A DNA stretch of 64,000 bases from contig OX597830.1 of the NCBI GenBank assembly GCA_951406725.2, forward strand, positions 54,746,001 through 54,810,000, in the 5' to 3' direction. Source of the stretch: Octopus vulgaris. Its lineage: Eukaryota. Positions 27,007-60,980 of the stretch are shown here, in pieces; within the stretch, counting starts at the first letter, position 1, and each line of letters begins with the position of its first letter. Under the pieces are notes generated by a model, which had not been told where the DNA came from, searched no databases, and was given only the letters and a program-made list of their open reading frames with translations. A program made the position numbers and the translations under genes.

Positions 27007-27215
27007 AAAACTGCAGACCTCATGGTATTCACATAGCCTTTGGTAACACAACACAGGACATAGTGATAATGTGGTCATCAGTGGCCAACTGTTCAAGCTC
27101 TGTGAAATACGGTGACACCATACAGAACAAGAAGTACAAAGCGGAACCAACTACAGTGTTTTTTAATCTTACCAACTCACTGGCAAGACATTACTACTAC
27201 CATGCTGTACTAAAA
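27007..27215 (+). CDS. ACP7: ACP7-like exon A: PAP N-terminal FN3-like domain
   Basis: tttcttttgtgcag acceptor; NCRPHGIHIAFGNTTQDIVIMWSSVANCSSSVKYG...RHYYYHAVLK resembles the PAP PxxxHxxxG...W...VxYG...YxHxxxL pattern; donor gtgagt at 27216. Starts in phase 1, so an upstream exon is required. Confidence 0.88.
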
Positions 27216-29286: not shown

Positions 29287-29376
29287 GACCTCAAACCAAA
29301 TACAACATACTATTACAGTATAGTCAACAGTAAAATGGTGACTCCTGCCTACTTTAAGACACCACCAAAGGGCAAT
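29287..29376 (+). CDS. ACP7: ACP7-like exon B
   Basis: ttccag acceptor; DLKPNTTYYYSIVNSKMVTPAYFKTPPKGN (FN3 LxPxTxYxY...FxT motif); donor gtaagt; 90 nt, phase 0/0. Absent from the ORF track. Confidence 0.9.
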
Positions 29377-31159: not shown

Positions 31160-31309
31160 GAATGGTCCCCTTCGTTTGTCCTCTTTGGTGATCTTGGAGT
31201 GGAATCCCGCATTCATCCAACTCTAACCAATGAAGCATTGTCTGGCAAATATTCTGCCTTCTTCCATATTGGAGATTTTGCTTACAACTTCGAAGACGAT
31301 GGTGGACAG
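31160..31309 (+). CDS. ACP7: ACP7-like exon C: DxG and GDxxY metal ligands
   Basis: tttcaacag acceptor; EWSPSFVLFGDLGVESRIHPTLTNEALSGKYSAFFHIGDFAYNFEDDGGQ; donor gtaatt; 150 nt. Confidence 0.95.
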
Positions 31310-32321: not shown

Positions 32322-32397
32322 AATGGCGATGAGTTTATGGATATCATACAAGACTATGCAAAATATGTGCCTTACATGACAGCTCCAGGAAACCATG
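32322..32397 (+). CDS. ACP7: ACP7-like exon D: GNH(E) motif
   Basis: tttcatcacag acceptor; NGDEFMDIIQDYAKYVPYMTAPGNH + g; donor gtaaga; ends in phase 1. Confidence 0.95.
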
Positions 32398-37214: not shown

Positions 37215-37335
37215 AGATTGACAATGAAACATTCGCTCAATATCGGTACCGTTTTTCCATGCCTGGAACCAGTTGGCCAATGAAGTTGAATAAATTGTGG
37301 TACAGTTTTGATATTGGACCAGTACATTTCATCAG
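37215..37335 (+). CDS. ACP7: ACP7-like exon E
   Basis: ttgtttgcag acceptor; (E)IDNETFAQYRYRFSMPGTSWPMKLNKLWYSFDIGPVHFI(S); donor gtttga. Phase 1/2 completes GNHE and fits the next exon. Confidence 0.93.
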
Positions 37336-39748: not shown

Positions 39749-40254
39749 GGCATGGATGATGCCAGAATAGATAAAGAACTGGAGCGGGTAAGCCATTTCA
39801 TATTTCATTCTTTCATTATATTCATATTTCATATGTCACGTTCTATGTACCCCACATTTTGTCTGTCCCTGTGGTGTCCCCTCTTTTTTTCTCAGGCTTT
39901 ATGCCTATAATAAAGAAAAATAGATAAAGAACTGGACAAAATATATTTTTGTTTGTTTGCTTTGTACATATTCTTCCTGTCACTTAGAATACAAAAATAA
40001 AAACATTGAATATGGAATTAAATTAATGTTTTTTCCTTTCCTTCCAGTTATTCTACAGAAGTATTCTTCATAAAAGACACCAGATATATTGCAGCTCAGT
40101 CTGCTTGGCTAATAGAAGACTTAGACAAAGCAAATAAACAGAGAAAAGACCATCCTTGGATTATAGCTGTTGGTCATCGACCAATGTATTGTTCCAACAG
40201 CAATGATGATGATTGTACTTTGGAAAACTCCGAAGTTAAAGTGCAGTAAAGATC

Positions 40255-45851: not shown

Positions 45852-46045
45852 CTTGGAGAACATATTCTACATTGCTGGTGTTGATGTGATTTTTGAAGCT
45901 CACGAACATTCTTATGAACGTCTGTATCCTGTTTACGACGGTAAAGTGGTCAGTGAGAACTACACAGATGCTGCTGCACCAATCCATATTATAACAGGGG
46001 CTGCTGGCAATAAATGGGGCTCAGATCCCATGGATAGGGATGCAG
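45852..46045 (+). CDS. ACP7: ACP7-like exon G: AHEH motif
   Basis: ttttttcag acceptor; LENIFYIAGVDVIFEAHEHSYERLYPVYDGKVVSENYTDAAAPIHIITGAAGNKWGSDPMDRDA + g; donor gtgagc; ends in phase 1. Confidence 0.95.
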
Positions 46046-50930: not shown

Positions 50931-50958
50931 CCATGTTGGTATTTTTGTTGTTTTTCAG

Positions 50959-50997
50959 TTAATGCCACACATGAAGAATTTCACCAGAACAATACTG
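50959..50997 (+). CDS. Putative microexon 1 (VNATHEEFHQNNT), GC donor
   Basis: tttttgttgtttttcag acceptor, 39 nt, phase 1/1, followed by g|gcaagt; sequons NAT and NNT. Confidence 0.6.
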
Positions 50998-52190
50998 GCA
51001 AGTTACTGATAACAATCACATTACCTCACATTACTCTGGAAAGCTTATTTTCTTTTATTATTATTATTTCCAATTTTGAAATTTTTCCACACCATTTTAC
51101 TTTTCATGTTTGTTTTTTTTCTATTACAAATTCTCCTCCACGTCATCACCACCATTTAAATCAACCTCTTTTCTTCTTTTTGTCTCGGGTGTTGGAATTT
51201 CTACAATATTTATTTCATTGTGTCTTTAATTTTTAATTTATAAAAAGGTTTTAATTAACTTAATTCATAATTAATTTTATGTAATTAATTAACAATCAGT
51301 ATCATTAATTCTAATAATATTTTCTGTTAACTATTTCTACATTCATTATGCATATATGATCACCTCTGCATGATCAGGAATATGTCTGGCATTTTCTTTT
51401 ATAAGAATTCCCTATTTTCACATATCTATCATCTGTGATCATGTTTTTCTTTTTCATTCTTCACTTATGTCTCTATTTATTAATGGACATCATCTTTCAC
51501 CCTGTCTATTCTGATCTTGTGAAATTTTATTTGGTACATTATAATACAGTATTATTTGTATAATACTGTATTATAATTTATCTATCATCCAGTTAATTAC
51601 CATATATTTATCTTTAGGTACTTTTATGGGGTACACTATTGTGGTAGACTATCACCCTGTTTAACACCACCATCTAGTCCTTGAGTTCTTTAACCCGGGT
51701 CTAAATCAGGAATAAGCAACTGTTGTCAAGAAGTGGGCCACGTGAGACATGAATCATCAGCTGGCAAGCCATCATCATCATCATCGTTTAGCATCCGCTT
51801 TCCATGCTAGCATGGGTTGGACGGTTCAACTGGGGTCTGGGAAGCCAGAAGGCTGCACCAGGCCTAATATAAACTTCAGAGTAGTTTTACTTTAGGCCTG
51901 CCATTCAGGAAATGCTGTGGGTTGCAGGTTGCCTATAACTGGCCTGAATATTGCAAGCATTCCTGGCTGGTCTCCATTCTTAGAATAATTTCCTCTTTTT
52001 CTTACCTCACCAGTCTTGGTATACCTGAGGATATGTCACAAAGTATGTTAAGCACTCTGGAGATGGAAATGATAATTAATAGGTGTACCCAGGTGAAAAC
52101 ATTTTGATATCACATAAATTTCACAAGAATAACCATGTCTCTTTCTCTTTCTACACACACATATATGTTGGTATTTTTGTTGTTTTTCAG

Positions 52191-52229
52191 TTAATGTAAC
52201 TAACCAAGAATTACTCCACAACCATACTG
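52191..52229 (+). CDS. Putative microexon 2 (VNVTNQELLHNHT), GC donor
   Basis: Same acceptor context as microexon 1, 39 nt, phase 1/1, g|gcaagt; sequons NVT and NHT. Confidence 0.6.
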
Positions 52230-53207
52230 GCAAGTTATTGATAATATTCACATTACTCTGGAATGGGTTTTTTTTTTTTTTCATCTGTTTCAAGTTTTGA
52301 AATTTTTCCACCCCATTTTACCAACATTATCATCACCATCTAAAAACCTTTCTTTTTTCTCTTAAATTCTTGGGTTTGGGGATTTCTAGAATTCTTATTT
52401 AATTCCATTGTCTCTTTAGTTTTTTTTAATTTTCAAAAAGAATTTTAATTAACTTTTTGATTTATAATTAATTTTATATAATTAATTAACTATCAGTATC
52501 ATTAATTCTAATAATATTTTTTGTTAGCTTCTTCTTCATTCATTTTGGTTATGGGCTTACCACTACATGATCAGAAATATATCTGACATTCTATTTTATA
52601 ACGATTCCTATTTCCACATATCCATCATCTGTGATTGTTTTTCTTCTTTGTATCTCTATTTATTGAATAACGGACATCATCTGTTATCACTTTCTACCCT
52701 GTCCTTGGGAATCTTTCTGTGATATACTGCAGTATTCGAATTTATCTGTCATCCAGTTTATTGCCATTACTCTATCATTAGACACCTTTAAGGGGTATAT
52801 TATTGTGGTGGGAGGCTATCACCCTATTTAACAATGCCATCTTGCCTTTGACTTCTTTAAACAGAGTCTAAATCAGGCATGAGCAACCATTTCCAAGAAG
52901 TGGGTTGCATGAAACACAAGGGAGGCTGTGTGCAGGATGGGAGAGGCAGCTGAAAGAGCTTTTTGTTGGCTTTAGAGTTAAGATGGGGGCCAGGGGGAGA
53001 TGAAGAGCAATGATTTGGCCACCTCTGCTGACCTACCAATGGGAGGGTGTTACAGTTCAGAGTACATATTTTATCCCATTTGCCAAACTGCTAAGTTACA
53101 GCAGCATAAAGAAACCAACACCAATTATCAAGTTATGGCAGCAGGACACACACTCACTTACTCACACACACACACACACGCACACACTTACTCACACACA
53201 CTTACTC

Positions 53208-53238
<31 letters not shown>

Positions 53239-53573
53239 AACACACACACACTTACTCACACACACAACTGGCTTCTATACAGTTTCCATCTACCAAATTC
53301 ACTCACAACGCTTTGGTTGACACCTGTCAAAGGTTCCACTGAGTGGAACTGAACCCAAAACCATATAGTTATGAAGCAAGCTTCTTAACCACACAGCCAT
53401 AAATAAGGAGCTAGGGACAGACAGACAGACAGACATAGTTTTGTATAGCGTCCCCCAATATTTCCACAAGCTCAGCTGATAAAAAGACCAAATTTCTCTA
53501 ATATTCACAGTATTTCTTCATAAAATTAATATTTCTCTCTCTATTTCTTTTTCCTTTTATTTTATTATTTCAG

Positions 53574-53615
53574 TTGATAATAATTCCACATTTGAGGAAA
53601 ATTTCAATAACACGG
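53574..53615 (+). CDS. Putative microexon 3 (VDNNSTFEENFNNT), GC donor
   Basis: Long pyrimidine tract + cag, 42 nt, phase 1/1, g|gcaagt; sequons NNS/NST and NNT. Confidence 0.6.
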
Positions 53616-54133
53616 GCAAGTTTTTTTAACTTTTGTGTTTCCCAGCATTATTTTTTTGACTATTTTTGATAACTCTTTCTTAATTTGGATTTTTTCACAA
53701 ACAGCAAACACACACACTCACACAAACACACATATACATACATCCACACATGCACACACCCATACATACACCCACATATATATATATATATATAATCATC
53801 ATCATCATCATCATCGTTTAACATCCGCTTTCCATGCTAGCATGGGTTGGACGGTTCAACTGGGGTCTGGGAAGCCCGAAGGCTGCACCAGGCCAGTCAG
53901 ATGTGGCAGTGTTTCTACAGCTGGATGCCCTTCCTAACGCCAATATATATATATATTCTCTTTTACTCTTTACTCTTTTACTCTTTTATTATATTATATA
54001 TAATTTAGAGAAAAAACCCTATTAAACAATTCAATAATGAAAGATATTATTCACACCATATAGAAAACATATACTAAAAAAACCTTATTATAAAAATCAA
54101 TAAGGTACAATAAATAGTAAATAGTAGTAAAAA

Positions 54134-55049: not shown

Positions 55050-56165
55050 AATAGTAAAACTATTTGGTTAATTATTCCCTATGGGAAAAAAATTAAATCT
55101 AATCTTCCTTTGCAGTTTTGTGAAGCTATTATTAGGAATTTTCTAAAGAATTTTAGGTATTATTCTATTATCAACTCACACAGTTAGGATTGGTTTTTCC
55201 ATCACAAAAGTCTCTTGCAAATTATCTCTTCACATAATATTAACCTGTTAAATATTGACACATTTACTAATACTAACATTAATTTAGCTAATACCATTCA
55301 TCCCCCTAGAAAAATAATAACAAGGTTATTGTATCTGAAGTCAATTACAACAGAATCAAGTTTATGTCAAGTAACTCTAAAATTGAAAATTCTATATACC
55401 AGTGTAAAATTACTACTGGTAATGAAGTATTTTTTTTATATAGGAAGCTCATCTTCTCCGTTATCTAAAAGAATTTCTAATCATTACTCAACATTTAGGG
55501 ATAGGAATAAACGTAAAAGTACATGGCTTAGTAAATTTATTTGGTATCTAAAAGACCACAATAAACAATTTAATTTAGATTGATTGATTCTCTCAATATC
55601 GATACTTTATGACAAAGGCAAGGAATTATGTCTTCTCTGTAATTCTGGTTTATTTTTATTCTTTTTTCTAAAAATCTCCTTGTAAACATGGTTATAGAGC
55701 ATGCATACCAATGTAAACATTGGCAAAAACACAGCATTAGTTCATATAAGAGATATCTATCATTATATATAATTTAAACATATATTTTCTTCTTACATTT
55801 CACGTTCACTAGATATATCTTTTTCCAAGTCTATATGGTTTTATTTAATATACATATAGTTATATACTTCTCATTTATTTGGGGATTTTTTACCCCTCCT
55901 CTTTCTATACACTACCTTTCACGTTAAATCCTCTAACGTTTTTTTTAAACAAATTTAATAGCATTCAGTTAATCACTATACATATCCATCATTTTCTGTT
56001 AAAATGTCTTATTGACGAGTCTCATTTCTTCATTTCCCTGAAGAGAAGATTACATTGTTTTACACCATTTTATTCCTTTGGAATAATACCAGTGATATCT
56101 TCGAAACATGTGTCAGAAGTAAAAGAATTTGAATAACACCAGCGTTTAACTCCATTTATTTATTT
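55050..56165 (+). mobile_element. Penelope-like element 3' part (GIY-YIG endonuclease relic and terminal repeat)
   Basis: YFFYIGSSSSPLSKRISNHYSTFRDRNKRKSTWLSKFIWYLKDHNKQFNLD..LCLLC with stops and frameshifts; hammerhead motif downstream. Confidence 0.8.
56032..56120 (+). ncRNA. Hammerhead ribozyme-like motif (type I minimal, Penelope-associated)
   Basis: CTGAAGA (56038-56044), stem II gaagat/atcttc, GAAA (56103-56106), palindromic acatgt helix III, GTC triplet 56112-56114, imperfect stem I atttcc/agaagt. Confidence 0.6.
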
Positions 56166-59333: not shown

Positions 59334-60052
59334 CAGGGTGCAATGAGTAAATTATTGCCGTTTTATATATTTAATTTCATGCGTGCACATTGTTTGTTTT
59401 TGAGTTTGTTGACTACACAGTATAGTAGGGTCAGTTGGGCTCCATCTATGAGAAAAACAGCATCATAGTGTTTGGAGTGATCACTAGTGATGGCATCATT
59501 ATGCCTCCAAACATCTTACCACACGGCCTCGGACTCAACATGGAGGCCTGCATCAAGTACCTGGAGGAGGTAGTGCTGCCCTGGGTCAAGAGGGTGTCTG
59601 TTGGAAGACCCTATGTCTGGCATCCGGACTCTGCACCATGCCACATAAGCAAGAGAATCCTGTCATGACCATCAGACAATTTCTGGAACCACATCACCCC
59701 TAACATCTGGCCACCTAACTCCCTAGACTGCAACCCTCTTGATTATTATGTGTGGGGTGCATCCGAGTGAGTGACCAACAAAACTCCTTGTAATACCAAC
59801 GATCAACTGAAGGCAAGGATTATGGCAGCATTCACCAACTTAAACAAGGAAACCATTCAGAAGAGTTACAGGAGATTCCAAAGTTGTCTGGAGGCCATGG
59901 TTGAAGCCAATGGCAATTTTATTGAATAAATTTACTCTTTAGTATTTCAAGATATTTTCATGTAATTTTGGTAAATATTTCTGTTAAAATGAGATGTTAG
60001 TGTTATTTTCCTTTTTGCGTAATTTAGATGACAGTTTATTCACTGTACCCTG
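59334..60052 (+). mobile_element. Internally deleted DD37D (maT-type) Tc1/mariner element with both TIRs
   Basis: TA|cagggtgcaatgagtaaatt ... tttattcactgtaccctg|TA; DSAPCH...WPPNSLDCNPLDY with 37 residues between the last two catalytic Asp; internal stops; inserted in a family A SINE. Confidence 0.88.
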
Positions 60053-60411: not shown

Positions 60412-60980
60412 GTAATTGGACAGCATTCCGCCAGAGTGGATTCTCGTTGGACAGCTATGGAAGGTTTACAGTCTACAACTGTACTCACTTGTTCTGGGAA
60501 CAAGTACAAGATGGTAAAGATTTGGACAGCATTTGGATTGTGAAAGGAGAACATACGAAAAACAATGTCAGTAAAGAACTCCAGAAGAAAATCATAAAAA
60601 ATGTGATGGATCAACTTGCAACAACCACGCCAAAAGCAACAACACCACCAATAGCAGTAGGAACACACGTAAAAGCTAATGGATCTCAGCATTCGGTTCT
60701 ATCCTCACCGTTCCTGAAAGGCAAAAGCAGTCAGACATTGATCATCAGTCTGTCTGCTGTTGGAGGATGTATTTTAATCCTCATAACGGTCTGTATGGTT
60801 ATCAAGAGCAACAGGAATAAATCATCGCCGGTTAGTTCTTGGAATGATGGGGGTTTTGTGAAGAGGAGTTTTTATCGTAACATAAAGAATTTAGAGAATG
60901 ACATTATGTCAGAAGAACTGGACATGCATGATGGCTCGTTACCAACTTCGAAATTGCTATCTGAAAATATGGACATCTAA
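60412..60980 (+). CDS. ACP7: ACP7-like terminal exon: PAP C-domain, Thr-rich stalk, transmembrane helix, cytosolic tail
   Basis: Strong pyrimidine tract + ttgcag; (G)NWTAFRQSGFSLDSYGRFTVYNCTHLFWEQVQDGKDLDSIWIVK matches the PAP C-terminal W.A.R...YG...V.N.THL..EQ...D pattern; hydrophobic LIISLSAVGGCILILITVCMVI; stop TAA 60978-60980. Confidence 0.92.

Follow-up and report, generated by a model that had tools for sequence, protein, structure and literature searches.

Short GC-donor cassette exons encode a sequon-rich insert in the catalytic domain of an octopus ACP7-like protein

The window analysed here, 64 kb of Octopus vulgaris DNA (contig OX597830.1, positions 54746001-54810000, forward strand), contains three short spliced exons, units 1 to 3, which lie between two coding exons of a gene for a protein resembling purple acid phosphatases (PAPs) and together encode a 40-residue insert rich in predicted N-glycosylation sites (Table 1). 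In gene models of related cephalopods, inserts at this site are both included and skipped.

Table 1. Features located in the window (positions count from the first nucleotide of the 64-kb stretch)
Feature	Positions	Strand	Description
Six further coding exons	27007-27215, 29287-29376, 31160-31309, 32322-32397, 37215-37335, 40048-40245	+	GT donors
Upstream constitutive exon	45852-46045	+	Last two metal-ligand histidines; phase 1 end; GT donor; from tblastn and junction search
Unit 1, 39-nt cassette exon	50959-50997	+	Phase 1/1; 2 sequons; GC donor; from sequence and RNA contig joint
Unit 2, 39-nt cassette exon	52191-52229	+	Phase 1/1; 2 sequons; GC donor; tandem duplicate of unit 1
Unit 3, 42-nt cassette exon	53574-53615	+	Phase 1/1; 3 sequons (2 overlapping); presumed GC donor
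Tandem duplication, ~800 nt, with units 1 and 2 and their splice sites	50933-52904	+	Copies 50933-51737 and 52165-52904
Last coding exon	60412-60980	+	End of catalytic domain; Thr/Pro-rich stalk; predicted transmembrane helix (about 60723-60815); cytoplasmic tail

Splicing and combination of the three units

Each unit is preceded by a cag acceptor, starts with TT, ends in ACNG and is followed by the sequence gcaagt, and when placed between the flanking exons the three units form a single open frame, so that the positions, lengths, ends, donors and frame-keeping phase given in an earlier sequence-only reading are all borne out. That reading had also assigned a pyrimidine tract to every unit; the cag is indeed general, but in units 1 and 2 the tract is rich in T and G and for this reason fails an 80% pyrimidine filter. 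When both strands of the window were scanned loosely for pseudo-exons (24-90 nt, a multiple of 3, donor G/GYRAG with the slash marking the cut, open in phase 1), units 1 to 3 were the sole matches, while a stricter scan with the pyrimidine filter retained unit 3 alone. Read past the GC donors by eye, short open stretches run into stops. Neural microexons of the SRRM3/4 type are 27 nt or shorter and have a UGC motif near the acceptor; the units are too long for this class and have no TGC within 40 nt upstream. Their lengths do fall within a loose microexon definition of 51 nt or shorter, as given in an excerpt of PMC12064062. In the donors the +2 base is C and the -2 base is T or G in place of the consensus A (PMC3167603, in excerpt), and the seven other donors recovered in the host gene are all GT. 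The -2 base is the last of a Thr codon, so that the protein would not force the weakness of these donors.

No further unit was found in the intron or the genome: a genome DNA search, which skips common words, matched the region of unit 1 to the unit 1 and unit 2 copies alone, and matched unit 3 to itself alone. Between unit 3 and the last exon the plus strand has a 165-codon stretch with one stop (55188-55682), whose translation has a likeness to the GIY-YIG endonuclease of Penelope-like retroelements, and, at about 59450-59920, what we take from its motif, by eye, to be the decayed remains of a Tc1/mariner transposase.

Four runs from four studies, presumed to be RNA, were compared with positions 50931-53700, a stretch outside which both flanking exons lie. 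The joint of unit 1 to unit 2 is found in two of the four (X3 and X12) and that of unit 2 to unit 3 in three (X3, X8 and X12), with unit 3 covered in all four, counts that register the presence of joints, not levels of inclusion, in runs given without their tissue. The joints fall at 50996/52190 and 52228/53573 and, with one ambiguous letter each, equal GC-AG cuts, which places the donors of units 1 and 2 in GC-AG introns; the same is presumed for unit 3. Intron depth is zero in most non-repeat bins. In X3 and X12 depth arithmetic gives pieces of 41, 39 and 44 letters, which would fit a transcript in which the upstream exon (final CAG), the three units and the last exon (initial G) follow one another. 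Run X8 has a unit 2 piece of 41 letters, leaves unit 1 without spliced cover and likely skips it; this run also holds one unspliced 239-nt contig at a depth of 2.2. In run X10 units 1 and 3 are covered and unit 2 is not, with no joint among the rows listed. The three units are thus real spliced exons, as the sequence-only reading had proposed. Directly after unit 2, positions 52233-52325 have contig depth in three of the four runs (9.1, 5.0 and 21.2) that the listed joints do not explain, and the sequence near 52237 has a loose likeness to the start of unit 3.

RefSeq-type models generally rest on RNA evidence, and those of O. sinensis comprise six isoforms with five of the eight possible unit combinations: all three (isoforms X1 and X6), 2 and 3 (X2), 1 and 2 (X3), 3 alone (X4) and none (X5). 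The models of O. bimaculoides hold three combinations (none, unit 3 alone and all three), and the O. vulgaris annotation, CAI9735406.1, omits all three units, which together with run X8 points to skipping in O. vulgaris as well. The pharaoh cuttlefish has models that contain a 28-residue insert at the same site and others that lack it, and unnamed transcript-derived proteins of the same cluster (15 listed of 19 members) include insert and skip forms, the insert being present in most of the full-length cuttlefish proteins listed. The units therefore behave as cassette exons, included and skipped in five combinations in O. sinensis and three in O. bimaculoides, in keeping with the variable splicing suggested earlier, and the cuttlefish insert does so in two; the form with no unit is modelled in all three octopuses and in the cuttlefish. 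A second decapod cluster (3 members) has skip forms and no insert, 13 short transcript-derived fragments gave no further insert form, and members of seven more clusters (six with named mollusc members, one unnamed) have no insert where the region is present. One unnamed decapod transcript-derived protein (P0157) terminates six residues past the same exon junction, which suggests another alternative, truncating exon in the same intron.

The host protein and the position of the insert

The exon map, made by tblastn and junction search, matches the window to the O. vulgaris protein CAI9735406.1, a 583-residue model named 'acid phosphatase type 7-like', with no exon found in the window for its residues 1-48. 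All seven metal ligands are present (D159, D187, Y190, N222, H307, H347 and H349, in the numbering of the O. sinensis isoform), and the five metal-ligand motifs of purple acid phosphatases occur in CAI9735406.1 too. The domains PF16656, PF00149 and PF14008 (PAP N-terminal, Metallophos and Metallophos_C) all score above Pfam cut-offs, and the best Foldseek matches are plant PAPs (E about 1e-28). The predicted transmembrane helix is supported both by hydropathy and by a helix in the structure models, and the protein model starts with a hydrophobic, signal-like segment; given such a start and a C-terminal anchor, the catalytic domain likely faces the outside or the lumen. By its sequence the host belongs with the ACP7-like purple acid phosphatases of molluscs; its membrane anchorage and its phosphatase activity are both predicted.

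A midpoint-rooted tree of 43 chosen rows places the coleoid proteins together with membrane-anchored proteins of bivalves and gastropods (support 100/99), and vertebrate, insect and other mollusc sequences, vertebrate ACP7 among them, form a separate clade (100/100), a placement that sets the host apart from the orthologues of vertebrate ACP7. The octopus protein has its domain set, fold and seven metal ligands in common with plant-type high-molecular-weight PAPs and ACP7-like proteins, and differs in its place within a mollusc clade that has a C-terminal anchor and stands separate from vertebrate ACP7, and in the length of one linker. To our knowledge, little is known of the function of animal ACP7-type enzymes. 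High conservation of the cytoplasmic tail between octopus and cuttlefish suggests that the tail may have an independent role in sorting or binding. Elsewhere in the genome two ACP7-like paralogues, L002 (G000:C1:151565933-151566100) and L003 (G000:C4:173501917-173502078), stand in open frames of 526 and 444 codons and so are probably intron-poor copies; two more, in short frames, lie on C9 and C27.

The linker interrupted by the insert measures 13-19 residues in 104 of the 106 parsable non-coleoid relatives, is shorter in two and longer in none (among the best 120 of 277 matches, 115 being non-coleoid and 9 of these unparsable), against up to 54 residues in the octopus, so that the short linker expected in known PAPs is general and the insert is restricted to coleoids among the proteins compared. 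In the structure model with three units, residues 395-434, exactly the insert, have pLDDT below 50, and the core secondary-structure elements are the same with and without it. The insert is accordingly modelled as disordered, a prediction in which low pLDDT is also to be expected from the few alignment rows that cover it. Alignment to sweet potato PAP (1XZW), at roughly 24% identity, pairs Trp385 with Glu365, and by hand count the insert starts ten residues later. Glu365 hydrogen-bonds phosphate and helps set substrate orientation and specificity, as described in an excerpt of PMC4062093, and from the alignment the insert loop is likely to lie near the active-site rim; the available text of PMC2267794 has nothing on this loop. 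A sequon at the linker end in 15 of the 106 other relatives, including the closest bivalves, suggests that the loop may be exposed. In those bivalve proteins (P0028, P0030-P0032 and P0038) one sequon apparently spans the same exon junction.

Origin and sequence change of the units

The two duplicated copies that hold units 1 and 2 align at 71% over 828 columns in blastn. They agree at every base of the 26 nt leading up to the exon (26/26) and of the 8 nt following it (8/8), compared with 79% (503/639) in the intron and 74% (29/39) in the exon itself; at the intron rate a run of 26/26 has a chance of 0.002, and another stretch of the duplicated intron holds an identical run of 29 nt. With homologous flanks as well as homologous exons, units 1 and 2 are tandem exon duplicates. 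The likeness of unit 3 to unit 1 is confined to the exon (DNA p=0.002, protein p=0.007), and no significant likeness to unit 2 was found (p=0.17 for DNA, 0.08 for protein). The paralogy first claimed for all three units is thus secure for the duplicated pair, and common descent of unit 3 with the others is likely from its sequence.

The cuttlefish insert consists of 28 residues with four sequons and divides into two 14-residue halves, each with N-x-S/T near both ends. The halves resemble each other (p=0.001) and the first resembles octopus unit 3 (p=0.0006), in shuffle tests that shared sequons and a phase-forced first residue inflate. A common origin of the octopus and cuttlefish inserts is likely on this likeness, the alternative being convergence. 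Fragments from clam, snail and cuttlefish read into the intron, from which the same phase-1 intron appears to be present in all three; being apparently common to them, it is likely an old intron in which the units arose.

The 40-residue insert has seven sequons, where 'six or more' had been counted before. This density (7 in 40 residues, against 10 in the other 465 residues of the ectodomain, p=1e-4) is far above expectation from residue composition (p=1e-5), and of the 7740 windows of 13 codons that are open in the same intron, just 31 hold two sequons. Closely spaced, overlapping sequons may not all be used. The earlier proposals that sequons persist and that other cephalopods should be compared are answered together by three octopus species that keep the frame, the sequons and the splice sites: each of the seven sequons has the same position in all three, and not one of the seven variable insert columns falls on a sequon N or S/T (0/7, p=0.035). 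Between units 1 and 2 alone, sequon retention was not significant (7-13% chance by simulation). Between this genome and the sister species O. sinensis, 4 of 40 insert residues differ, three of them in unit 3, as against 2 of 583 in the rest of the protein (p=2e-4); compared with O. bimaculoides the insert is 90% identical and the rest 92%. Across these sequences, then, the pattern appears to be one in which splice sites, frame and sequons are kept and spacers are free. In protein sequence unit 3 equals its O. bimaculoides counterpart, yet 3 of its 14 residues, none of them costing a sequon, are different in O. sinensis, a far nearer relative. A separate paralogue as the source of O. sinensis unit 3 finds no support in the O. 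vulgaris genome, where no second unit 3-like copy was found.

Possible roles and related systems

Our preferred explanation, which we judge evenly poised between right and wrong, is an N-glycan shield, set by splicing, that tunes the access of large substrates or partners to a predicted membrane-anchored enzyme. Each unit could be skipped through its weak GC donor, and each unit included would add two or three predicted N-glycan sites, giving a total between zero and seven. These sites would sit on a predicted flexible loop near the active-site rim, facing the outside or the lumen, where their glycan bulk may tune the reach of large substrates or partners. The selected property would be the number and bulk of glycans and not the peptide sequence, and the catalytic chemistry would be unchanged by the insert. 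A more elaborate version can be put forward tentatively, and we doubt that it holds in full: a coleoid combinatorial N-glycan dial in the PAP catalytic domain, in which an ancestral 14-codon exon flanked by sequons multiplied separately in octopuses and cuttlefish, its inclusion being set by tissue or condition through weak GC donors, so as to change substrate or partner access stepwise, with spacers under diversifying selection. An isoform series differing by zero to seven predicted glycan sites on one loop would be a clean test of glycan bulk on an ecto-enzyme. The finding concerns one gene in one animal group, where it also supplies a dated case of cephalopod exons arising and being duplicated, and exposes a practical gap, the genome's own annotation missing all three GC-donor exons.

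It is possible, if on balance improbable, that the units are glycosylated but act on stability or routing, through protease shielding, folding or the choice between surface and lysosome, rather than on the access of substrates. Sequons that stay fixed while the spacers vary suit any role of bulk glycans, other relatives have the linker-end sequon noted above, and fibulin 2 misfolds on loss of a single spliced N-glycan site according to excerpts of PMC12095903. Yet the remaining ectodomain already has 10 sequons, and the zero-unit form is the family norm, modelled in each octopus species and in the cuttlefish, so folding does not need the insert. Control by glycan bulk of self-association or of binding to lectin-like partners, microbial ones included, in the manner of CD45, seems to us unlikely. 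It would explain the fast change of spacers relative to O. sinensis, and it has precedents in the readier dimerisation of short CD45 isoforms (excerpt of PMC4730250) and in plant PAPs, which are homodimers (excerpt of PMC4062093); but relaxed constraint would give the same fast change, and in the comparison with O. bimaculoides insert and remainder are conserved to about the same degree. Nor is it likely that the units are passengers that a permissive surface loop tolerates, their splicing due to the existence of the sites and of little effect on fitness. The exon interior has diverged between the duplicates at least as much as the intron, and the O. vulgaris annotation and the second decapod cluster show skip forms only, as passengers would allow; against this stand the sequons, frame and splice sites kept in three octopus species, the cuttlefish insert of like build, and the fully included form, assembled in two of the four runs, with the insert in most full-length cuttlefish proteins listed. 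That the units are unspliced intronic look-alikes, as their omission from CAI9735406.1 might suggest, is very improbable in the face of exact joints in contigs from three studies and independent gene models in two other species.

The arrangement had been thought undescribed. A literature search, with most subscription papers outside its scope, found no description of it, and the available text of bioRxiv 10.64898/2026.09.05.749416, which includes O. bimaculoides, has neither 'phosphatase' nor 'glycosyl'; its supplements might include the three units. The claim holds for papers, then, as far as this search reached, but not for databases, as the unit isoforms are already in the automatic models of RefSeq and UniProt, nor for the principle, as glycosylation cassette exons are known in CD45 and FBLN2. 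The predicted membrane anchor, the cuttlefish insert and the fast change of the spacers go beyond the sequence-only reading.

CD45/PTPRC, an unrelated tyrosine phosphatase, serves as a working analogue and not as a relative, and its variable segments stand away from the catalytic domain. It is likewise a membrane-anchored phosphatase with three cassette exons (exons 4-6, RA, RB and RC) for glycosylated extracellular segments used in all-to-none combinations, and excerpts of PMC4730250 describe those segments as O-glycosylated, whereas the octopus units are of 13-14 codons, carry N-sequons and GC donors and lie inside the catalytic domain. Schistosome MEGs similarly have small symmetrical exons, in-frame skipping and often disordered glycosylated segments, but their coding region is mostly microexons under 36 bp and their glycans are mostly O-linked (excerpt of PMC4671649); the octopus has three 39-42-nt exons in an ordinary enzyme gene, the small exons supplying 40 of 623 residues, and does not belong to that class. 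In FBLN2 exon 9 alternative splicing likewise decides N-glycosylation, but with one exon and one site in a matrix protein, and with neither array nor enzyme, as excerpts of PMC12095903 present it. According to excerpts of PMC3167603, about 1% of introns in humans have a GC donor, and such donors are overrepresented among alternative introns. On average GC donors are stronger at their other positions; the octopus gene has three in succession, at least two of them inherited by duplication, and these are off-consensus at -2.
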